A DNA stretch of 64,000 bases from a virus (taxonomy: Duplodnaviria > Heunggongvirae > Uroviricota > Caudoviricetes), in IMG/VR virus record IMGVR_UViG_3300008262_000026, one strand, 5' to 3'. This document shows, in pieces, positions 22,710-47,450 of the stretch (within the stretch, counting starts at the first letter, position 1; every line of letters starts with the position of its first letter). A model generated the notes under the pieces. The model was not told the origin of the DNA. It did no database searches and saw only the letters and a program-made list of their open reading frames with translations. Position numbers and translations under genes: made by a program.

Positions 22710-23027
22710 ATGAAACCTATTCTTGCTATTTTCGGTGGTGTGATTGGTGTAGGTGCCCTGACATGGGGACTCACCTATCATGAACTGATCTTCACTGGAT
22801 TCTTTGCTCCTAAGTTTGAGAATGTTCGTAGGAACACTTTTGAGCAATCCAAATCCTTCCGAACTGGTGCTGTTCAAGAACTTCAGAACATGCAGTTTGA
22901 ATACATCAAAGCATCACCTGAACATAAGAAAGCACTTGCTGATGTGATTCGGCATCGTGCCGTTGAAGTTCCTGCTGATGCCATGCCTTCCGATCTTCAG
23001 TCCTTTATTTCTAATCTTCCTCAGTGA
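22710..23027 (+). CDS. membrane-anchored hypothetical protein
   Basis: N-terminal TM helix ILAIFGGVIGVGALTWGL. Confidence 0.5.
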   Translation: MKPILAIFGGVIGVGALTWGLTYHELIFTGFFAPKFENVRRNTFEQSKSFRTGAVQELQNMQFEYIKASPEHKKALADVIRHRAVEVPADAMPSDLQSFISNLPQ

Positions 23028-23032
23028 TTCTG

Positions 23033-23572
23033 ATGACTACTAACTATCCTGAATTTATTGCTTTTCCTAAAATTCCCCGCCTTCATAAGGAATGCGTGGT
23101 TACTGAAAAGATTGATGGAACTAATGGCATTATCTACATCACTGATGATGGAGATATGTTTATTGGAAGTCGCAATCGTTGGTTGAGTGCAGAATCCGAT
23201 AACTTTGGTTTTCATCGTTGGGCATCTGAAAATAAAGATGAACTGATGAAACTTGGTTTTGGTCGTCATCATGGAGAGTGGTGGGGTAGTGGCATTCAAC
23301 GAGGATACAATCTCCCTAAAGGTGAGAAGAGGTTTTCTCTGTTCAATGTGAATATCTGGAATTATGAAAACATTCCTGCCTGTTGCCATGTGGTTCCAAC
23401 TCTTTATACTGGAGAGTTTAGCACTAATGCAATTGATGATGTAATGTATAATCTTGAAACTAATGGTTCTGTTGCTTCTGAAGGTTTTATGAATCCTGAA
23501 GGTGTGATGATTTACCATTCTGCTGCTAATCATTATTTCAAGGCACCTTTTGATAAAAATCATAAGGGTTGA
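23033..23572 (+). CDS. ATP-dependent RNA ligase (PF09414/Rnl-like nucleotidyltransferase)
   Basis: Motif I KIDGTN, motif IV EGFMNPEGVMIY, motif V KAPFDK. ATG start chosen over the track's GTG. Confidence 0.6.
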   Translation: MTTNYPEFIAFPKIPRLHKECVVTEKIDGTNGIIYITDDGDMFIGSRNRWLSAESDNFGFHRWASENKDELMKLGFGRHHGEWWGSGIQRGYNLPKGEKRFSLFNVNIWNYENIPACCHVVPTLYTGEFSTNAIDDVMYNLETNGSVASEGFMNPEGVMIYHSAANHYFKAPFDKNHKG

Positions 23573-23633
23573 GGACACTTTCTAAACTGGCACAAGACCC
23601 TTCCCATTCTCAGCAAATCTACCCTATACTAAC
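23571..23633 (+). promoter_or_regulatory. cassette A7, degenerate (ACTGGCACAAG core, TATACT 23625..23630, no clean hairpin)
   Basis: Shares CACTTTCTAAACTGGCACAAG with the 25881 and 12133 copies. Confidence 0.35.
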
Positions 23634-23651
23634 TTCAGTTCAAACAAACAA

Positions 23652-24137
23652 ATGAAAACTATCGTTTCTGTTGCCGCACTTGCTATTCTTGGTCTTACCC
23701 TGACTGGTTGTGAAATTGAAGCGGATTCTGATGATACTCAACGTTCTCAACAAGAACGTATTCTGAAAGAGGCAACTTCGCAAACTGGTATGCCTGCTAT
23801 CAAGAACTTCCGTGAGCGTAAGTTGCTGAAGCAGATTATTGAAATGCGTGATCAGGATGGTGTTGTGACCTACACTTACACTCTTCCCGAAACTACTGGT
23901 GTTCCCGTGTTTCTGTGTAATTCTATTGGATATGGTATTCCTGCTGCTACACAATATACCAATCCTGAGAAGTATGAATACACTGGCACGACTCTTCCTC
24001 AGGCAGATCCTAATGGTTTGTTCTCTCCTGATAGTGCTGATGGCACTTGGGTGATGTGTTCTGATCCCAGTGGTAGTGGCAAGACCCGTCCTGTTTATGT
24101 TGAACCCCGTATTATTGTTTCTCCTTTCAAACTGTGA
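23652..24137 (+). CDS. lipoprotein
   Basis: Signal peptide plus lipobox LTLTGC. Confidence 0.6.
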   Translation: MKTIVSVAALAILGLTLTGCEIEADSDDTQRSQQERILKEATSQTGMPAIKNFRERKLLKQIIEMRDQDGVVTYTYTLPETTGVPVFLCNSIGYGIPAATQYTNPEKYEYTGTTLPQADPNGLFSPDSADGTWVMCSDPSGSGKTRPVYVEPRIIVSPFKL

Positions 24138-24331
24138 TGAACTCCAAAGGATTTACTCTTGTTGAACTGATGATTGCCGTTGCTATTCTTGGCATTCTTG
24201 CTGCTATTGGTATCGGTGCAATCTCAGGCAATTCTTTTATTCAAACCAAAGATTCTTGCCTGAATGCTGGTGGCAAATGGTCTGAGGGCATTCAATACGG
24301 TCGTGTGACTCAACTCTGTACTTATAACTGA
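24137..24331 (+). CDS. type IV pilin-like (prepilin N-terminal methylation motif) protein
   Basis: MNSKGFTLVELMIAVAILGILAAIGIG has the class III signal with G|F and E5. ATG start chosen over the track's GTG. Confidence 0.6.
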   Translation: MNSKGFTLVELMIAVAILGILAAIGIGAISGNSFIQTKDSCLNAGGKWSEGIQYGRVTQLCTYN

Positions 24332-24333
24332 TT

Positions 24334-24633
24334 ATGTCTCCTAAAAATTCTATTGGTAAGGAAAAGGCAATTCAACTCTACAACACCAACTGGTGGGAAG
24401 GACTTTCTTATGAAGAGATTGCTGAATTTCAACTTTTCACTTCTGAACTCTGTTGCCCCTTTGATGTATTTCACGAAGCAGTTGAGAAGTCACTGGGTCG
24501 TCCTGTATTCACTCACGAATTTGGATTGAACTATCAGGGTATTTGTAATGAGTTTCTTGGAGAAAAAGAATCTCCTACAACGGATGAAATTCTGAATCTG
24601 ATTCCTCAAGAAAAACTTATTGTTATCAAATAA
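24334..24633 (+). CDS. hypothetical protein
   Basis: Plus-strand ORF. Confidence 0.45.
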   Translation: MSPKNSIGKEKAIQLYNTNWWEGLSYEEIAEFQLFTSELCCPFDVFHEAVEKSLGRPVFTHEFGLNYQGICNEFLGEKESPTTDEILNLIPQEKLIVIK

Positions 24634-24872
24634 TGGACGAAGATACTAAACAATTTCTGAAGTTTGCCGGCATTTGTGCTGGCATTACCACTGTTTCAAT
24701 GCTGATTCTTGTAGGTGCCGGTTATACATTTGAGGCGATTGAAGACTCCATTAAATTCAATCGTTATCAAGATGCGATGAAAGAGTACCGACAATGTGCC
24801 CAAAAGTACCAAGATTCCCTATCTGTGAGACTTTATTGTGGCGATGAACCTTCCTCTACTATGATGCTATGA
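24633..24872 (+). CDS. membrane protein
   Basis: TM helix ICAGITTVSMLILVGAG. Confidence 0.45.
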   Translation: MDEDTKQFLKFAGICAGITTVSMLILVGAGYTFEAIEDSIKFNRYQDAMKEYRQCAQKYQDSLSVRLYCGDEPSSTMML

Positions 24873-25060
24873 TTGGACGCATTCTTGGTACAGGAATCGG
24901 AATACTTCTGATTCTCCTTGTGCTTCTTGCAAGAGGTATTCCTGTCTTGTTCTTTATCAAGATGCTGCCTCTTGTTCTGATTCTTATTCTGGGAGCAGCA
25001 TTTGTCTATGCTGGTCTCACTTCTGACTGATTGTTCTTTACTCAACTAACTTAAATTATT

Positions 25061-25882
25061 ATGTCTCTCGCAAAAGTTGCTATCGGTGGTGGTGCAGTTG
25101 TTCTTGCCCTTGTGCTCACTGCTGGTCAATTCACCACTATCAACACTGGTGAAAATGGCCTCTACACTGATTTCCAAGGTAAGGTGAAGAATGAGATTCT
25201 CACTCCTGGAATCAAGTATGATGGTCTGGGTTCTATCAAGGTATTCAATACCCGTAAGATTACTGTTCAATCTAACGACCTGACTCCTAAGACCAAAGAC
25301 AACACCATTATGAAAGATATGGATGTTGTGGTTACTTACAGTCTGTCTCCTACCAGTCTGTATGAGTTCTACACTGGTTATGATATTACTAATCACTCTC
25401 TGAGTCAGAATGGTCAGATTGAACTGATGGCAAGTTTCATCAAGCGTCTGATTACTTCTGCTGTGAATCAATCGGTTGATGAATATCCTGCTCTGGAAGT
25501 GAACAGCAGTCTGGATAAAATTCAGGAAACTATCAAACAGAACCTGAATATTGCTCTGGAGAAGAACAATCTTGCTGGTAAGATTGATATTGAATCTGTG
25601 GTGGTTGTAAAGGCAGACCTGCCCGAACAACTGGTTGATTCTGTGAATCGTGTGGTTGCTGCTCAATCTGACTACAAGGAACAGGAAGTGAAGACTCGCA
25701 CTGCTCAACTGAAAGCAGAACAAAACAAGGCACTTGCTTCTACTGTGACCAACCAATCTCTGGAGTATCAACGTAACGAAATTCTCAAGGCAGCATTTGA
25801 GAATGGTAGCATTCAGAAGATGGTGATTATCAATGGTGCTAAGATGGACTTCCTCCCTGGTGGTTTCTCTGACGGTAAGTGA
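25061..25882 (+). CDS. SPFH/band-7 (prohibitin/HflC-like) protein
   Basis: N-terminal TM helix followed by an SPFH-type domain (TTINTGENGL..., long coiled-coil tail). Confidence 0.7.
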   Translation: MSLAKVAIGGGAVVLALVLTAGQFTTINTGENGLYTDFQGKVKNEILTPGIKYDGLGSIKVFNTRKITVQSNDLTPKTKDNTIMKDMDVVVTYSLSPTSLYEFYTGYDITNHSLSQNGQIELMASFIKRLITSAVNQSVDEYPALEVNSSLDKIQETIKQNLNIALEKNNLAGKIDIESVVVVKADLPEQLVDSVNRVVAAQSDYKEQEVKTRTAQLKAEQNKALASTVTNQSLEYQRNEILKAAFENGSIQKMVIINGAKMDFLPGGFSDGK

Positions 25883-25940
25883 CACTTTCTAAACTGTCAC
25901 AAGGGCATCCTACAGGTGCCCTTTTCTGCTTTATAATACT
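25881..25940 (+). terminator. cassette A8 (terminator + TATAAT 25932..25937)
   Basis: Same architecture. Confidence 0.6.
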
Positions 25941-25960
25941 CTCATAAGCAAAGGGTTCAA

Positions 25961-26692
25961 ATGTTCCAATTCGCAGAAGTCGGTGGTGCAGTTCGGGATA
26001 AGTTCCTGGGACTGGATTCCAAAGACGTTGATTTTGTTGCTGTTCCTGAAAATGCTGATACCTTTCTGAATGCAGATGCCGCATTTATGTTTCTCTGCAC
26101 TCACCTGAAAGAACAGGGGTTCAAAGTATTTCTGGAAACTCCTGAATTCTTTACTGTTCGGGCACAAGTTCCTGATGGTCATCCACTGAAAGAACGCACT
26201 AATGTTGCTGATTTTGTGCTTGCCCGTAAGGATGGTCCCAGCAGTGATGGTCGCCGCCCTGACTTTGTTCTGCCCGGAACCCTGATGGATGACCTGCAGA
26301 GACGGGATTTTACCGTCAATGCGATGGCAATTCTGAATGGGGAACTGGTGGATCCATTCGGGGGCAGGAACGATCTGGAGGAGGGTCTGCTGCGGTTTGT
26401 GGGTGATCCTACCCAACGCATCGCAGAGGACGGTCTGAGGGTCATGAGGGCACTGAGGTTCTTTGTAACTAAAGGGTTTAATATGGATGCCGATACTTGG
26501 GATGCAATCAACAGTGATTTTGCTGCTGAAATGCTGACCAAAGTATCTGTAGATCGTATCCGTGAGGAACTGGAAAAAATGTTCTTTACGAATACTCTGT
26601 GGAGTCTGAAAGTTCTGGATGATTTGAATACCGAAGTTCGCAAGGCAATCTTCCGTGATGGCCTGCGTCTGATGCCCACTCTGAAAAAGTAA
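25961..26692 (+). CDS. nucleotidyltransferase, poly(A) polymerase/CCA-adding enzyme head-domain family
   Basis: GGAVRD...DVDF (GGxVRD plus DxD) signature of class II tRNA nucleotidyltransferases. Only 243 aa. Confidence 0.6.
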   Translation: MFQFAEVGGAVRDKFLGLDSKDVDFVAVPENADTFLNADAAFMFLCTHLKEQGFKVFLETPEFFTVRAQVPDGHPLKERTNVADFVLARKDGPSSDGRRPDFVLPGTLMDDLQRRDFTVNAMAILNGELVDPFGGRNDLEEGLLRFVGDPTQRIAEDGLRVMRALRFFVTKGFNMDADTWDAINSDFAAEMLTKVSVDRIREELEKMFFTNTLWSLKVLDDLNTEVRKAIFRDGLRLMPTLKK

Positions 26693-26765
26693 ATTATGAT
26701 TAACCTTCTAAAAATCGCATTCATTGCTTATATTGCAGTTGCTATCTACGGTCAGGGTATTAAAG

Positions 26766-27314
26766 ATGGAAAAAGAGAATGTAACAGACCTCAGGAAGCA
26801 CCTGTTGCAACGACACCTAAACCTTGAACTACATCGTCCATTTTTAGATGAAGAACTCAACATCGCCACTTTTTATTGTTGGAACCTATCAGGACAACTG
26901 GTAGGATACCAGCAATACAACCCAAATGGTGATAAGAAAATCTTCAACTCTAAACTGGAGGGCAAATACTACACCTACAGAAACAAGAATCACCAAACAG
27001 TAGTTGTATGGGGCACTGAGAGTCTCTATCAGTCAGATGGTGTTGTCTATCTGACTGAAGGAATCTTTGATGCTGCCCGTATGACAAATGTGGGACAATC
27101 TGCTCTTGCTGCTATGGCAAATAATCCACCAAAGGATTATAGAAACTGGTTGCAAATGCTAAATCGTCCTGTGGTTGCTGTTTGTGATAATGATGATGCA
27201 GGAAAAAAACTTGCCAAGTTCGGGCATTATGTAGAAGTGGTGCCTGATGGTAAAGATTTGGGTGATGCTCCTGATGATTATGTTAGGTATCTACTCAACA
27301 AGTATGCCACCTGA
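26766..27314 (+). CDS. Toprim domain protein
   Basis: LTEGIFDA ... VCDNDDAG ... (Toprim E and DxD motifs). Start trimmed to MEKENV. Confidence 0.5.
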   Translation: MEKENVTDLRKHLLQRHLNLELHRPFLDEELNIATFYCWNLSGQLVGYQQYNPNGDKKIFNSKLEGKYYTYRNKNHQTVVVWGTESLYQSDGVVYLTEGIFDAARMTNVGQSALAAMANNPPKDYRNWLQMLNRPVVAVCDNDDAGKKLAKFGHYVEVVPDGKDLGDAPDDYVRYLLNKYAT

Positions 27315-27882: not shown

Positions 27883-27937
27883 CACCTGAATAACTGACAC
27901 AAGGCACTTGACAGACAAAATCAAATGCCTTATACTA
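27883..27937 (+). terminator. cassette A10 (variant hairpin + TATACT 27931..27936)
   Basis: CACCTGAATAACTGACACAAGGCA lead-in. Confidence 0.45.
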
Positions 27938-36260: not shown

Positions 36261-37502
36261 ACCAAACAAATGCAATTCAAACTTCGTCCTCACCAACAAC
36301 GCGGCATTGATGCTATGTCTAAGCATAGCAAAGGTCAACTAATCGTCCCCACAGGTGGCGGCAAGACCCTTAAGATGATTTACGATGCTGTGCGTGAGTT
36401 CTCTCAAGAAACTCCTCAGACTATTGTAGTTGTCGCTCCTCGCATTCTGCTTGCTGAGCAACTGTCTGCTGAGTTCCTGGAGTTTATCACTAACGCTAAG
36501 GTTTTCCACGTCCATAGTGGAGAGACGCATCACCAATCTTCTACTCGTCCTGATACTATTGCGGAATGGGTTGATGCTCACTCTGACCGTCACAAACTGA
36601 TTGTAACCACCTATCACTCTCTGCGTCGTCTTGTTGATGCTGAGGTTGATGTGGATACCATCTACTTTGACGAGGCACACAATAGCGTTCAGCGTCACTT
36701 TTTCGCTGCAGTTGAGCATTTTTCTTACGATGCAAAGCGTTCCTACTTCTTTACTGCAACTCCTAAGCACAGCGTCACTGCCGGCAAACCCGGAATGAAT
36801 GATGTTGATGTTTATGGTCAGGTCATCTGTAAGGTTCCTGCCCCTGAACTTGTGAGTGGTGGTTATATTGTTCCGCCTAAAGTCATCGTCAAGCAACTGC
36901 CTATGGTGACTGGTAAGCAGACCAACTATGACCGAGATGCTGCAAATCTTCTGGAAACCATTGATGAGAACTCTGTGGGTAAAATCCTGATTTGTGCTAA
37001 GGCAACCAAGCAGATTGTCTCTCTGATTGCAGAAACCGATTTCTGCTCTGAACTCAATCAGCGCGGTTATTCTTGGATGTATATTACTGCCAAGACGGGT
37101 GCGGTGATTGACGGTAAGAAAGTCAATCGTGAGGTGTTCTTTGATACTCTCAGTGCCTGGAGTAAGGATAACGACAAAAAGTTCGTCATTCTTCACCACT
37201 CCATTCTCAGCGAAGGTATCAACGTTTCTGGTCTTGAGGCAGTTCTGTTTATGCGGAATATGGACTTCATTGGAATCTCCCAAACTATCGGTCGGGTGAT
37301 TCGTCTGCACCACGATGATGCTCGCGAACTTGCCTCTGGTAATATCCAACCGGGTGCTCTGGAAACTTATACCAAGTCCTTTGGTCTGGTTTGTATTCCT
37401 GTCTATAGTTCGGTTGGTGTTGCTACTGCTCGCTCTGTTCAGGCAGTTGTTGATACCATCTTTGAGAAGGGAGAACCTGCCATCAGTGTGGTGCGGCGCT
37501 GA
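36255..37502 (+). CDS. SF2 DEAD/DEAH-box helicase (ResIII-type N-domain)
   Basis: LRPHQQ, Walker A PTGGGKT, DEAH FDEAHN, TATP, QTIGRVIR. Start lies inside motif B copy 36226..36260. Confidence 0.75.
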   Translation: MSTKQMQFKLRPHQQRGIDAMSKHSKGQLIVPTGGGKTLKMIYDAVREFSQETPQTIVVVAPRILLAEQLSAEFLEFITNAKVFHVHSGETHHQSSTRPDTIAEWVDAHSDRHKLIVTTYHSLRRLVDAEVDVDTIYFDEAHNSVQRHFFAAVEHFSYDAKRSYFFTATPKHSVTAGKPGMNDVDVYGQVICKVPAPELVSGGYIVPPKVIVKQLPMVTGKQTNYDRDAANLLETIDENSVGKILICAKATKQIVSLIAETDFCSELNQRGYSWMYITAKTGAVIDGKKVNREVFFDTLSAWSKDNDKKFVILHHSILSEGINVSGLEAVLFMRNMDFIGISQTIGRVIRLHHDDARELASGNIQPGALETYTKSFGLVCIPVYSSVGVATARSVQAVVDTIFEKGEPAISVVRR

Positions 37503-37621: not shown

Positions 37622-38284
37622 ATGATTGACTTTGATGTTTACGGTCTTGAGTCTCTTGTGTGGGTATATGCAACGCAAGAAGGTATCATTACTCCCAATA
37701 CTTGGGAGAAAATCATCAGCAAATCTGTGTATGGTGAACACATACCAGGAGATATTTTTATGGCAGATGGGATGAAAAATCAGTTTGGATTGAACATAAA
37801 ATCACTTCTAAAATCTTTCACGAAAGGTGACATACAAACCTGTAGTTTTGTTCAGTGTCGTTGTCCTTTAGATGAAAATGAAAACATTGGAGAAGGTGTA
37901 ATTAAGACTCTTGTTGAAAAAAGAGAGGAAAGTTTTAAGGAGTTTAATCTTGACACTATGCTTGATGTAATTATTCTCCATAATCGTTCTGACAATGATT
38001 ACAATGTTAGGGTATTTGTTGAAAAGCAAGATGAGTATGAAAATCTAAATCTTATTTGGGATGATTCTCGTGCTTATCTTAATCCAGATAGGTCAAAAAA
38101 TAACTGGAAGAAGACCTGGAAAATAAAAAGAGTTTCTGGTAATGCAAGTGCATTTCAAACTTGCGTATATGTGAAAAAGACTTTTGATGCCAACAAGTGC
38201 GTTGCCAATTTTACTGTCAAATGCTATGATAACTATGAGGTCTCTATCCAAGAAGCAAAAGAAAAGTATGATAAAGTACAGTAA
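37622..38284 (+). CDS. hypothetical protein
   Basis: Between helicase and methyltransferase. Start trimmed. Confidence 0.45.
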   Translation: MIDFDVYGLESLVWVYATQEGIITPNTWEKIISKSVYGEHIPGDIFMADGMKNQFGLNIKSLLKSFTKGDIQTCSFVQCRCPLDENENIGEGVIKTLVEKREESFKEFNLDTMLDVIILHNRSDNDYNVRVFVEKQDEYENLNLIWDDSRAYLNPDRSKNNWKKTWKIKRVSGNASAFQTCVYVKKTFDANKCVANFTVKCYDNYEVSIQEAKEKYDKVQ

Positions 38285-39083
38285 AGAAAATATAGATTTG
38301 TACTTGCAGGATTGTATTGAGTGGATGGGAAGTTTAGATGATAATAGTGTTGATATGACTCTAACATCCCCACCTTATGATAATATCAGAAATTACAATG
38401 GTTATTCTTTTGACTTTCAATCTATAGCAAAAGAATTGTATCGCATCACTAAAGATGGTGGAGTTGTAGTTTGGAATGTTGCTGACCAAACTATCAATGG
38501 TAGTGAAACTGGAACTTCTATGAAACAAGCACTGTATTTTGTGGAGTGTGGTTTTAAGTTGCACGATACTATGATTTACTTAAAAAAGAACCCAATGCCA
38601 AGTAGTGGTAAGAGGTATCATCAATCTTGGGAATATATTTTTTGCTTTAGTAAAGGAACGCCAAACACATTTAATCCGATTGAGGTTGAGTGTAAGTACG
38701 GAAATCTAAAGGCAAATCAAAAGTATCGTGGAAAGGATGGTGAAAAAAAATATAAAGTTACGAAAAGAAACGCTTTCTCAAAAGTAAGAAATGTTTTCGA
38801 GTATGTTATAGGTGGTGGTCATACCACAAAAGATAAGATAGCATTTGAACATCCTGCAATAATGCCTGAAAAACTTGCAGAAGATCAAATTAAAACTTGG
38901 ACAAATGAAGGTGATTTGGTTATTGACCCCTTTGCTGGTTCTGGAACTACTGCAAAAATGGCATATTTGAATAATAGGATATTTTCTGGTTGCGAGATTA
39001 GTGAAGAATACTGTAAGATTTTCATAAAACGTTTGGAAGAACACATTACTAAAAATGTAAATGTTCTTGAGTTTATTGTATGA
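38268..39083 (+). CDS. DNA methyltransferase, beta-class (SPPY motif IV, N4C or N6A)
   Basis: DMTLTSPPYDN then LVIDPFAGSGTTAKMA. Start trimmed to MIKYSKENIDLYLQDC. Confidence 0.7.
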   Translation: MIKYSKENIDLYLQDCIEWMGSLDDNSVDMTLTSPPYDNIRNYNGYSFDFQSIAKELYRITKDGGVVVWNVADQTINGSETGTSMKQALYFVECGFKLHDTMIYLKKNPMPSSGKRYHQSWEYIFCFSKGTPNTFNPIEVECKYGNLKANQKYRGKDGEKKYKVTKRNAFSKVRNVFEYVIGGGHTTKDKIAFEHPAIMPEKLAEDQIKTWTNEGDLVIDPFAGSGTTAKMAYLNNRIFSGCEISEEYCKIFIKRLEEHITKNVNVLEFIV

Positions 39084-46494: not shown

Positions 46495-46529
46495 AACTGG
46501 GCCCGCGAAAGTGCATCAGTAGTATGACG
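46495..46529 (+). promoter_or_regulatory. motif B copy 13
   Basis: Contains the start codon of ligase 46524. Confidence 0.6.
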
Positions 46530-47450
46530 ACCAAACAAATGCAAAACATTCATATTGACCATCCAGAAGATTGTATCCTGACGGGCAATCTGTCGGTTCT
46601 TGATTGGTTTTATGATGCTGATTCTAGCATCAGTGTGAAACTTGATGGTGCCCCGGCATTAGTGTGGGGAACTAACCCGCAGAATGGTAAGTTTTTTGTC
46701 TGCACGAAAGCAGCATTTAACAAGCAAAAGATTCGCCTTTGCTATAATGAAGATGATGTTTTCCAGCACTTTGGTCATCAGCATCGCGTAGCACAAATCC
46801 TCATTTTCTGCCTGGACTTCCTGCCTCGCACTAAACAAGTGCTGCAAGGTGATTGGATTGGTTTTGGTAAGGGTTTGGATACCTTTACTCCCAACACGAT
46901 TACCTATAAGTTTCCTGAGGTAATTCGTCAAGAGATTATCATTGCTCCGCACACGATTTACAGTGGTGCTGATGATATTCGTGAGATGACTGCTGCTCCT
47001 CTGACTAGCAAACTCATCAGCACTAAGGATTGTCTTTTCGTGCAACCTGAGGTGTCGCTGAATCCTCATCGTGAAGATTTGGAAGAGGTGTGTAACTTTG
47101 CTAGGCAAATGAGTACGCTGTGTGAGTTTGTGAGCGAAAAGAAAGCATCACAAATCAAAAAAGAGATTAACGCTTGCATCCGTGAGCAAAGGGACGTTTG
47201 TGAGTATGAAATCGCAGAAAAATGCGATTGTGATAAGAACCTGATTCGTTTGTGGAAACTGGTTGCATCTATCAAGATGGATTTGTTCCTGTTCATTGAT
47301 AGTAGCACGGACATTCGCTGCGAGATTGAAGGTAAGTTCAGCGACCACGAAGGTTATGTTATCGTGAATCAATTTGGAATGATGAAAGTGGTTGACCGTG
47401 AGACTTTCTCTTGTGCAAACTTTACGATTGCAAAAAACTGGGCAAAGTGA
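46524..47450 (+). CDS. ATP-dependent polynucleotide ligase family protein (Rnl1-like, second ligase)
   Basis: Motif I VKLDGAP, motif IV DHEGYVIV, motif V MMKVVDR. Start inside motif B copy. Confidence 0.5.
   Translation: MTTKQMQNIHIDHPEDCILTGNLSVLDWFYDADSSISVKLDGAPALVWGTNPQNGKFFVCTKAAFNKQKIRLCYNEDDVFQHFGHQHRVAQILIFCLDFLPRTKQVLQGDWIGFGKGLDTFTPNTITYKFPEVIRQEIIIAPHTIYSGADDIREMTAAPLTSKLISTKDCLFVQPEVSLNPHREDLEEVCNFARQMSTLCEFVSEKKASQIKKEINACIREQRDVCEYEIAEKCDCDKNLIRLWKLVASIKMDLFLFIDSSTDIRCEIEGKFSDHEGYVIVNQFGMMKVVDRETFSCANFTIAKNWAK

Follow-up and report, generated by a model that had tools for sequence, protein, structure and literature searches.

What do an RNA ligase, a CCA-type nucleotidyltransferase and a Toprim-domain protein have in common when all three are encoded upstream of a Ro-like gene in the genome of a tailed phage? 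The question is raised by positions 23033-27314 of a viral DNA stretch of 64,000 nucleotides (IMG/VR record IMGVR_UViG_3300008262_000026; Caudoviricetes), the whole of which is called the window here, and for which an initial annotation had proposed a clustered RNA-damage countermeasure built around a Ro60-like ribonucleoprotein (RNP). The source seems to be a T4-like cyanophage (Kyanoviridae), since window proteins include Pfam matches to Kyano_Gp96, baseplate gp25 and gp6, and the DNA resembles that of Synechococcus phages B3 and B23 and Prochlorococcus phage P-SSM7. In our assessment the region probably carries (we put the probability at about 0.6) a reduced phage RNA (tRNA) repair or maintenance set that is composed of separately inherited modules and lies in an accessory region of this phage. 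The nucleotidyltransferase (NTase) and the primase-like protein that we call mini-DnaG are a conserved unit, being neighbours beyond chance, including in unrelated phages. The three enzyme genes are as follows.

23024..23572, + strand: minimal ATP-dependent RNA ligase, 182 residues, Rnl2/Rnl5-like nick-sealing type (PF09414, PHROG 548, AlphaFold/Foldseek)
25961..26692, + strand: short class-II NTase of the CCA-adding/poly(A) polymerase family, 243 residues, head and neck only (PF01743, PF12627, PHROG 24229)
26766..27314, + strand: mini-DnaG, 182 residues, DnaG/T7-type primase RNA-polymerase domain consisting of an N-terminal subdomain plus Toprim (PHROG 849, AlphaFold/Foldseek)

mini-DnaG and its gene neighbourhoods

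The open reading frame (ORF) called by the program for mini-DnaG spans 26724-27314, and the homologues begin at the ATG at 26766, which is the probable start. The earlier description of its product as a Toprim-domain protein is borne out by the agreement of PHROG 849 ('DNA primase', E 1.6e-36) with a primase-core structural model, though Pfam Toprim_2 itself is matched below threshold (19.2 bits, cut-off 22.1); TIGR01391 dnaG yields 16 bits (cut-off 284). The AlphaFold model, with a predicted local distance difference test (pLDDT) score of 90, corresponds in Foldseek searches to the whole catalytic core of the Escherichia coli, Aquifex and Mycobacterium tuberculosis DnaG proteins and of T7 gp4, with E-values against the DnaG cores from 8e-8 (E. 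coli) to 5e-5 and template modelling (TM) scores, on the query, of 0.53-0.67. The acidic residues of the Toprim domain (E, DxD and D) are represented by E98, D141, D143 and D164, all invariant in the close homologues, and among 50 diverse family members E98 remains invariant and D143 and D164 are at least 90 % conserved. There are no zinc-binding and helicase-binding domains, the model comprising the catalytic core only. By eye we read the motifs G..GYQ.Y, K..FNS, EGxxD, DxDxAG and PxGxDLG, which we take to be those of DnaG-type primases and which look like motifs for nucleotide binding; on this reading nucleotide transfer would be favoured over simple cleavage. An RNase M5-like or OLD-like nuclease was considered for the Toprim protein and rejected, the DnaG/T7 core being matched in Foldseek at E 1e-7 and the RNase M5 Toprim domain at E 0.018; mini-DnaG may still have a nuclease role. 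The sole match of mini-DnaG among the PADLOC defence-system models is a weak one, through a DnaG-like domain, to a DRT model (E 2e-5), and these models give no match for the ligase, the NTase or the DUF2828 protein discussed below.

In the window the mini-DnaG gene follows that of the NTase and is not sited beside a helicase in a replication module. The same arrangement recurs, with mini-DnaG 0.7-3.1 kb downstream of the NTase in 12 of 13 NTase loci. The cultured Vibrio phage eugene 12A10 and Shewanella phage 1/40 encode mini-DnaG proteins 38-41 % identical to that of the window, and in both phages the mini-DnaG gene overlaps or directly adjoins that of a full-length NTase-HD protein, the order in the Vibrio phage being phosphoesterase, AAA_33 kinase, NTase-HD and mini-DnaG. 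A search of 1.8 billion representatives returned 656 members of the mini-DnaG family, most of them stand-alone proteins of 165-205 residues. The longer members include fusions with CCA NTases in both orders, NTase-HD-miniDnaG in P0397 and miniDnaG-NTase-HD in P0474 (on two contigs), with P0385 and P0512 as further cases, and miniDnaG-NTase fusions occur among them. The other fusion partners (in proteins P0395, P0477, P0393, P0437, P0379, P0419 and P0396) are a HAD phosphatase, Mom-family proteins, Arr-like ADP-ribosyltransferases, GNAT, a cytidylyltransferase-like domain and ParB_N, and several of the fusions recur on more than one contig. The fusion partners all act on nucleic-acid termini or use tRNA; the founding member of the Mom family uses Gly-tRNA (PMC13219725).

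We surveyed the neighbours of mini-DnaG by clustering, without prior labels, the same-strand ORFs within 4 kb of the gene and then naming the top clusters by Pfam, in a sample of 87 loci (surveyed loci bear L numbers) that represent 35 lineages at 70 % identity. The leading neighbour is the CCA NTase, present in 8 of the 35 lineages, followed by Pnkp (AAA_33 kinase plus HAD_PNKP) and a calcineurin-type phosphoesterase (6 each), an Rnl5-like ligase with OB and PF09414 domains (5), a T4 Rnl1-type ligase (4) and HD proteins (3); NAMPT, NT5C, DNA ligase and homing endonucleases are also recurrent. At least one NTase, Pnkp or RNA ligase is found within 6 kb of mini-DnaG in 16 of the 35 lineages (43/87 loci), and such repair genes occur at 5/80 DUF2828 control loci and 0/18 loci of ordinary full-size DnaG-like primases. 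The resulting enrichments (Fisher p = 2e-6 against the DUF2828 loci and 3e-4 against the ordinary primase loci) are those of lineages and controls that are not phylogenetically independent and of windows that differ in size between test and control.

The clearest of the cassettes is that of L057. In this locus, which belongs to the window's own lineage (NTase 77 % and mini-DnaG 86 % identical), the order is Rnl5-like ligase, Rnl1, kinase, a 271-residue NTase, mini-DnaG and HAD_PNKP phosphatase, and the genes are packed with shared or overlapping stops and starts, the mini-DnaG start overlapping the NTase stop. L087 has Rnl1, kinase, phosphatase, the minimal ligase and NTase, and the gene order in L106 runs from DUF2828 through phosphoesterase, an Rnl1-like ORF, kinase and a GNAT-like ORF to mini-DnaG. 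Different ligases thus occupy the position near the NTase/mini-DnaG pair, with Rnl1 plus an Rnl5-like enzyme in L056 and L057 and with Rnl1 plus the minimal ligase in L087, a pattern that matches the swapping of ligase families and components described for RNA-repair systems (PMC7824862).

Two further features of these neighbourhoods may be recorded. A small GNAT-like ORF (MCD C-terminal-like) directly precedes mini-DnaG in L108 and L106. In L133 the tRNA array that ends just upstream of mini-DnaG, of about 14 genes, has a GOLLD RNA next to it (413-880; Rfam, 175 bits), and a CCA NTase follows 3 kb farther on.

The RNA ligase and the nucleotidyltransferase

The ligase gene starts with a GTG that overlaps the stop of the upstream ORF 22710-23027, and its translation contains the motifs KIDGTN, PEGVM and KAPFDK, the second of which had been given as EGxV and reads EGVM. 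Its assignment to the Rnl-type RNA ligases stands: Pfam PF09414 RNA_ligase is matched with E 6.9e-13 and 49.5 bits (cut-off 27) and PHROG 548 'RNA ligase' with E 5e-26, residues K29 (of KIDG), E85, E159-G160 and K173 are invariant among 27 homologues, and the profile of these homologues matches T4 Rnl2 in the PDB (E 0.0027). The AlphaFold model (pLDDT 90) has an adenylyltransferase fold that is nearer to RNA ligases than to DNA ligases, with Naegleria NgrRnl (E 3e-6) and T4 Rnl2 (E 1e-5) as the first PDB matches in Foldseek, followed by TbREL1 and archaeal Rnl3; DNA ligases rank lower, the best being that of African swine fever virus (E 1e-4) and the others having E 5e-3 or worse. Against the NCBIfam DRB0094 equivalog the protein scores 19 bits (cut-off 151). 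More than 7,900 homologues exist, which among the matches listed have 145-211 residues and mostly 177-206, and as the 182-residue window protein stops right after motif V it consists of the adenylyltransferase domain alone. The gene travels in a block of its own, made up of ORF 22710-23027, the ligase, a lipoprotein-like gene and a pilin-like gene.

The NTase shows the head and neck features of its class, namely GGxVRD...DxD, RRD and an EDxxR nucleotide-selection motif in the neck, which in the translation read GGAVRD...DVDF, DVD, RRD and EDGLRVMRALRF. Both Pfam PF01743 (E 6.6e-19, 68.9 bits, cut-off 23) and PF12627 (27.6 bits, cut-off 22) are matched, as is PHROG 24229 'tRNA nucleotidyltransferase', a profile of 245 positions (E 5.5e-51), and the closest proteins in the PDB are the CCA-adding enzymes 6ibp and 1miv (E 1e-24, residues 89-213 aligned). 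These results uphold the assignment to the class-II head domains of the CCA-adding/poly(A) polymerase family, within which CCA-, CC- and A-adding enzymes and poly(A) polymerases are not distinguishable by sequence alone. The NCBIfam CCA models, of 360-470 residues, are matched only over about residues 60-220 and far under their cut-offs (for example 125 against 290), and there is no HD domain. Thus neither a ligase confined to DNA nor an NTase of an unrelated family, either of which would have spoken against an RNA-directed set, was found at this locus, the one protein being of RNA-ligase type and the other of the CCA/poly(A) family.

The DUF2828 gene, the tRNA-like RNAs and the layout of the window

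The features that surround the enzyme genes, with one far downstream, are given below.

25061..25882, + strand: SPFH/Band-7 protein, 273 residues (Pfam PF01145, E 2e-19)
25901..25923, + strand: terminator-like hairpin with T-rich tail between the SPFH and NTase genes (consensus scan, pattern match only)
27908..27936, + strand: near-consensus sigma-70-type promoter (11/12 positions), intergenic, upstream of DUF2828 (consensus match only)
28093..29559, + strand: DUF2828/DUF7788 protein, 488 residues, with a DxSxS motif of the von Willebrand factor A (vWA) type (Pfam, PHROG 850)
29577-29605, + strand: second sigma-70-type promoter (11/12), intergenic, upstream of the tRNA-like array (consensus match only)
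29670-29786, 29898-30015 and 30162-30274, + strand: three tRNA-like RNAs (Rfam tRNA model, 45-55 bits, with long insertions)
46524..47450, + strand: DUF6267 protein, 308 residues, with KLDGAP (Pfam DUF6267, E 1e-75; PHROG 455, function unknown)

The called genes of the region are all on the + strand, with a G+C content of 0.32-0.45, and those for the RNA ligase, the NTase, mini-DnaG and the DUF2828 protein lie, together with the tRNA-like RNAs, within 7.3 kb. The initial annotation called 28093-29559 a TROVE gene, which does not hold: Pfam TROVE gives no match to its product, which instead matches DUF7788 (E 2e-53), DUF2828 (E 9e-37) and PHROG 850 'RNA-binding protein' (E 2e-144). Its vWA metal ion-dependent adhesion site motif, D294-V-S-G-S298, is invariant in 12 diverse homologues, and homologues are annotated elsewhere as 'Ro-like RNA-binding protein'. 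Homology to Ro60 was sought in a profile search of the PDB, in which no Ro60 structure was returned and the best match was a spurious one to S21.

The association of this gene with the enzymes was followed in its relatives. Neither NTase nor mini-DnaG occurs within 10 kb on either side of the gene at 38 close DUF2828 loci in viral contigs, where the minimal ligase occurs at one, or within 8 kb at 80 diverse DUF2828 loci, where a single weak match to the ligase profile was obtained. In phage B3 the NTase (gp211) and mini-DnaG (gp218) genes lie about 117 kb from DUF2828 (gp345), and in contigs of 258 kb the pair is about 100 kb away. What does accompany DUF2828 is tRNA, with tRNA genes, often in arrays of 10-30, within 8 kb in 56 of the 80 diverse loci (L179-L258); Pnkp and/or Rnl1/Rnl5-like ligases are near it in five (L188, L196, L197, L203 and L222). 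A single conserved operon with the Ro-like gene was rejected on account of the synteny and of the placement of the predicted promoters and terminator. The proposal that the set is built around a Ro60-like RNP is accordingly weak, the DUF2828 loci lacking NTase and mini-DnaG nearby, the promoters being separate and the hairpin standing before the NTase. There is, however, a second mini-DnaG lineage (L106, L108, L110, L115, L120, L121, L129 and L130) in which DUF2828 lies 3.5-5.8 kb upstream of mini-DnaG together with a phosphoesterase and, at most loci, Pnkp plus Rnl1 or an HD protein. As DUF2828 is upstream there and downstream here, DUF2828 and the mini-DnaG cassettes appear to have come together independently, and these two separate arrangements make a facultative link possible. 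DUF2828 and its tRNA-like RNAs are a separately inherited module that sometimes lies beside repair cassettes and is not required by them.

The array of tRNA-like RNAs (29670..30274) starts after DUF2828 and its elements are 113-118 nt long. Each has a 7 bp acceptor stem, a D arm and a T arm, the anticodon arm being replaced by an insert of 43-60 nt in which a hairpin and a CAGCA motif are present; no tRNA is called by ARAGORN anywhere in the window. An alignment that includes the B3 'pseudo-tRNA' and, from Cronobacter phage S13, two long 'tRNAs' shows the hairpin and CAGCA to be common to all, and the hairpin covaries (UAUCU/AGAUA against CAAACU/AGUUUG). With a covariance model (R1), one to five such RNAs were found just downstream of DUF2828 in all 29 close relatives that have downstream sequence, and upstream or downstream of it in 14 of 61 distant loci, as well as in the T4-like Cronobacter phage S13. 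The family, of 110-128 nt and usually in arrays of one to five, is thus present in cyanophage-like and more distant viral contigs (for example L001:10888-10997, L096:10895-11137, L002-L030, L197, L198, L218, L228 and others), and in the clade that combines DUF2828 with mini-DnaG no tRNA-like element was found by Rfam in L108 or by R1 in the clade. None of the three window RNAs encodes a 3' CCA, which makes them plausible NTase substrates; YrlA, a tRNA-like Y RNA, receives CCA in vivo (PMC4201824). Between the full elements there are extra fragments of the same design (30078-30156, 29826-29870, 29615-29630 and 30020-30035), one being a T-arm-like hairpin (GATGGTTCGATCCCATC) flanked by AGATAAG/CTTATCT and the others further hairpin and CAGCA copies, all of which could represent remnants of decayed elements or else a fourth RNA with a different arrangement.

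After the hairpin at 25901..25923 NTase and mini-DnaG probably begin a transcription unit of their own. Upstream of it, 23652-25882 constitutes a membrane or secreted-protein module that comprises a lipoprotein-like gene (PHROG 24725), a gene for a pilin-like protein whose N-terminus bears a methylation motif, DUF7736, a pair of small hydrophobic ORFs and the SPFH/Band-7 gene. In several loci of the window's lineage (L058-L061 and L067) the SPFH gene precedes mini-DnaG by 1.7-3.5 kb, in L053 and L054 it does so by 9.9 kb, and in relatives it is again found ahead of the NTase; we treat it as a context gene whose membership of the RNA-repair set is uncertain. An SPFH gene is found within the Pseudomonas aeruginosa rtc RNA-repair locus, which provides a literature lead to RNA repair (PMC13086221), and on the basis of this lead and the lineage-restricted synteny the protein may act as an RNA-repair scaffold.

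The DUF6267 gene at 46524..47450 had been taken for a second polynucleotide ligase on account of KLDGAP, which is present and forms part of a set of invariant ligase-like motifs (K39-x-D-G, H-E-G at 275-277 and K288), although homology to ligases is not significant: there is no match in PDB sequence or profile searches, and in hhalign comparisons with four ligase profiles only motif I was aligned (probability at most 9 %). We accordingly treat the protein as no more than a candidate ligase. DUF6267 is a very conserved and apparently cyanophage family of about 300 residues with more than 4,000 homologues, and it has diverged paralogues, which in L077 (2350-3228) and L083 (3629-4507) follow the minimal RNA ligase at a distance of 1-2 kb and in L135 (6564-7658) come directly after mini-DnaG.

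Elsewhere in the window, a 178-residue protein encoded at 30335-30871, which belongs to PHROG 6927, a family of unknown function, matches the PADLOC model of a type II restriction enzyme (E 4e-13), and its gene overlaps the start of that for a Dam-like N6/N4 DNA methyltransferase (30865-31593). The two, which are neighbours in L012 too, may be a phage-borne restriction-modification pair. A DEAD/ResIII-type helicase at 36255-37502 has weak PADLOC matches to PbeA/ZorD-type helicases, and near it a second N6/N4 DNA methyltransferase (38184-39083) brings the total in the window to two.

A probable tRNA repair set, its rivals and known systems

If the region does carry a reduced tRNA repair set, the NTase would, during infection, restore the 3' CCA of tRNAs and supply it to the three tRNA-like RNAs that are encoded 2.4 kb downstream without one, the ligase would seal 3'-OH/5'-phosphate nicks in base-paired RNA, and mini-DnaG, next to the NTase, would probably work on the 3' ends of RNA, whether by extending them on a template, by filling gaps or by trimming. 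In combination the three could counter the cleavage of tRNAs by defences of the host. A host immune system that cleaves the 3' tails of tRNAs (Cas12a3, PMC12851939) and another host system that cuts tRNA (OLD, PMC12445682) are described, and such systems, directed at tRNA tails or arms, supply a rationale for the proposed repair role.

Several observations weigh against this reading. The roles of all three proteins are predictions from homology and gene context. Pfam scans of the scanned window ORFs, including 130 further ones, found no family of 5' kinase, 3' phosphatase, cyclic phosphodiesterase, HD, 2H or RtcB, so that the window appears to hold a reduced version of its relatives' cassette, a repair pathway of T4 style is incomplete in these 64 kb, and the set would be limited to breaks with 3'-OH and 5'-phosphate unless the host provides a kinase and phosphatase or the rest of the genome encodes them. 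The idea of an RNA-damage countermeasure is therefore upheld as to the identities of the ligase and NTase and the repair neighbours of the mini-DnaG family and falls short as to end healing, and RtcB, drawn on by analogy, was not found in the window. The cluster, too, is real only in part, all three genes being where they were described and about seven ORFs (the lipoprotein-like and pilin-like genes, DUF7736, small hydrophobic ORFs and SPFH) separating the ligase from the NTase. The minimal ligase lacks the accessory domain, be it the Rnl2 C-domain or the Rnl5 N-terminal OB domain, that known nick-sealing ligases require, and its conserved linkage to repair genes is weak, with repair neighbours at 2 of its 19 loci and none at 17. 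Likewise the NTase has no body/tail region, by which characterized enzymes anchor tRNA, so that its substrate and specificity are not fixed by sequence. Finally, 19 of the 35 mini-DnaG lineages have no repair neighbour, the enrichment is subject to the caveats given with it, and in Kagunavirus a homologue 34-36 % identical to mini-DnaG follows a DNA helicase in the replication module, near the DNA polymerase. The family can therefore also serve as an ordinary primase, although a helicase adjoins a mini-DnaG family gene in Kagunavirus only and in none of about 60 full-length family loci in IMG/VR.

The Kagunavirus case gives substance to the view that the genes are chance neighbours in a T4-like variable region, where accessory genes pile up, with the Toprim protein a spare or split replication primase, the NTase maturing phage tRNAs and the ligase unrelated. 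The fold and motifs of mini-DnaG are those of the DnaG/T7 primase core, the ligase block moves independently, lineages without a repair neighbour are numerous, and stand-alone DnaG Toprim proteins with separate zinc ribbons are described for jumbo phages (PMC7824862). We nonetheless think this unlikely, given that mini-DnaG forms fusions with CCA NTases, in either order, and with a HAD phosphatase, that it sits in a cassette between kinase/NTase and phosphatase with its start overlapping the NTase stop, that the NTase emerges as top neighbour from an unsupervised analysis with the enrichments quoted above, and that none of the 18 ordinary full-size primase loci has repair genes. Kyanoviridae, moreover, already encode a T4-type gp61 primase. 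At the opposite extreme, ligase, NTase and Toprim protein might be one co-adapted countermeasure in which a Ro60-like RNP serves as the scaffold that recruits the enzymes to damaged RNA. The common strand and short span of the genes fit such a scaffold, as do the second lineage that pairs DUF2828 with repair genes in another order, the Pnkp and/or RNA ligases at 5 of 80 diverse DUF2828 loci and the proposal from comparative genomics (PMC7824862) that ROT/TROVE proteins are RNA-repair platforms; it is nevertheless distinctly improbable in view of the 0/38 close and 0/80 diverse DUF2828 loci with NTase or mini-DnaG nearby, the distances of about 100-117 kb in B3 and the 258-kb contigs, the separate promoters of DUF2828 and the RNAs and the hairpin ahead of the NTase, the lack of Ro60 homology by Pfam or PDB profile search, and the fact that the constant partners of DUF2828 are tRNA-like RNAs and tRNA arrays (56/80) rather than enzymes.

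A third view, that the set processes the phage's own tRNA-like RNAs, which would be excised, given CCA by the NTase and perhaps nicked and joined (circularized or permuted) into a mature Ro-like RNP, draws on their tRNA-type ends without encoded CCA, on their being the only tRNA-shaped substrates in 64 kb, as the window has no ordinary tRNA gene, and on the documented addition of CCA to a Y-like RNA (PMC4201824). We consider it very improbable, because most relatives with DUF2828 and the RNAs have none of these enzymes nearby, pairs of NTase and mini-DnaG are found in phages without DUF2828 within 6 kb, and host CCA-adding and tRNA-processing enzymes would suffice. The reading of a reduced repair set made of separate modules is thus the one that we retain. 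A more specific version of it is that mini-DnaG is an unrecognized component of phage tRNA repair, a zinc-finger-less, primase-derived RNA polymerase core that works on RNA, which we offer as a tentative suggestion and would not ourselves back. In one form mini-DnaG might refill tRNA 3' strands trimmed past the CCA, with the 5' strand as template and the CCA enzyme completing the tail; in another it might make short complementary RNA 'splints' that turn breaks into nicked duplexes for Rnl2/Rnl5-type ligases. If this is true, NTase and mini-DnaG would be a two-enzyme answer to defences that cut tRNA tails or excise nucleotides.

The wider interest lies in the fact that tRNA cleavage is a widespread bacterial route against phages and that tRNA repair by phages is known mainly from T4. 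No other gene accompanies the CCA-adding enzymes of phages as constantly as mini-DnaG, which lies within cassettes of ligase, kinase and phosphatase genes in numerous uncultured phages of aquatic origin as well as in Vibrio and Shewanella phages in culture, and the association predicts an RNA-directed activity for a fold known from DNA priming; the PHROG 849 label 'DNA primase' may then be wrong in many genomes. DUF2828 with its long tRNA-like RNA arrays forms a module that is common among phages and embedded within clusters of tRNA genes, and its occasional placement beside repair cassettes offers a handle on the function of phage Ro-like particles.

Among known systems the nearest parallel is the 'healing and sealing' by T4 Pnkp and Rnl1 that counters the anticodon nuclease PrrC, which likewise employs a phage ATP-dependent RNA ligase set for cut tRNAs. 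Relatives of our locus carry a true Rnl1, a polynucleotide kinase and a HAD_PNKP phosphatase beside the same NTase/mini-DnaG pair, whereas the window is without kinase and phosphatase and its ligase is of a domain-minimal Rnl2/Rnl5-like type, not Rnl1; conversely, it adds a CCA-type NTase and a primase-like protein that are absent in T4. Burroughs & Aravind are said to have described, in 2016, modular RNA-repair systems in which a ligase, an NTase and end-modifying enzymes are combined with a scaffold. The common syntax of such systems is an RNA ligase, a Pol-beta-type (CCA-adding) NTase and, optionally, a ROT/TROVE-like protein with a tRNA-like RNA, and the jumbo-phage survey describes phage and bacterial sets of this kind with Rnl1/Rnl2, a CCA-adding enzyme and ROT/TROVE (Iyer et al. 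2021, PMC7824862).

The bacterial rsr (Ro60)-YrlA-RtcB/RtcA operon of Salmonella resembles the window in having a ring/vWA-type RNA-binding gene, tRNA-like non-coding RNAs and repair enzymes nearby (PMC4201824, PMC7790460), and differs from it in that the window protein is DUF2828/DUF7788 and not TROVE, the ligase is of the ATP-dependent Rnl type and not RtcB, and the linkage is not conserved. The window RNAs have a tRNA topology with free acceptor ends and an insert in place of the anticodon arm. The ends of YrlA, in contrast, lie in the Ro-binding stem.

As to mini-DnaG, it shares its two-subdomain fold and its acidic Toprim residues with DnaG, T7 gp4 and the split primases of jumbo phages, and is set apart from DnaG and T7 gp4 by the lack of a zinc- or helicase-binding domain and, except in Kagunavirus, by its context of repair enzymes. 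RlaP is comparable as an accessory enzyme found through its linkage to RNA-repair ligases (PMC12776372) and is proposed to restore nucleotides before ligation (PMC7824862), but its fold is unrelated, RlaP being a Pol-beta NTase and mini-DnaG of the Toprim/DnaG type. We found no relevant paper that joins Toprim with tRNA nucleotidyltransferase, RNA repair or Pnkp, the 2016 survey of Burroughs & Aravind lying outside the comparison. The general idea of RNA repair by phages is already known, since T4 Pnkp/Rnl1 and the modular systems have been described. In its available part the jumbo-phage survey treats the DnaG Toprim protein as a replication primase only and does not place it among the components of modular RNA-repair systems (PMC7824862), whereas at the loci compared here no partner of the NTase is better conserved than the Toprim protein; a primase-like member of RNA-repair cassettes thus looks new, and it is there, rather than in the Ro-like link, that the interest of this locus rests.

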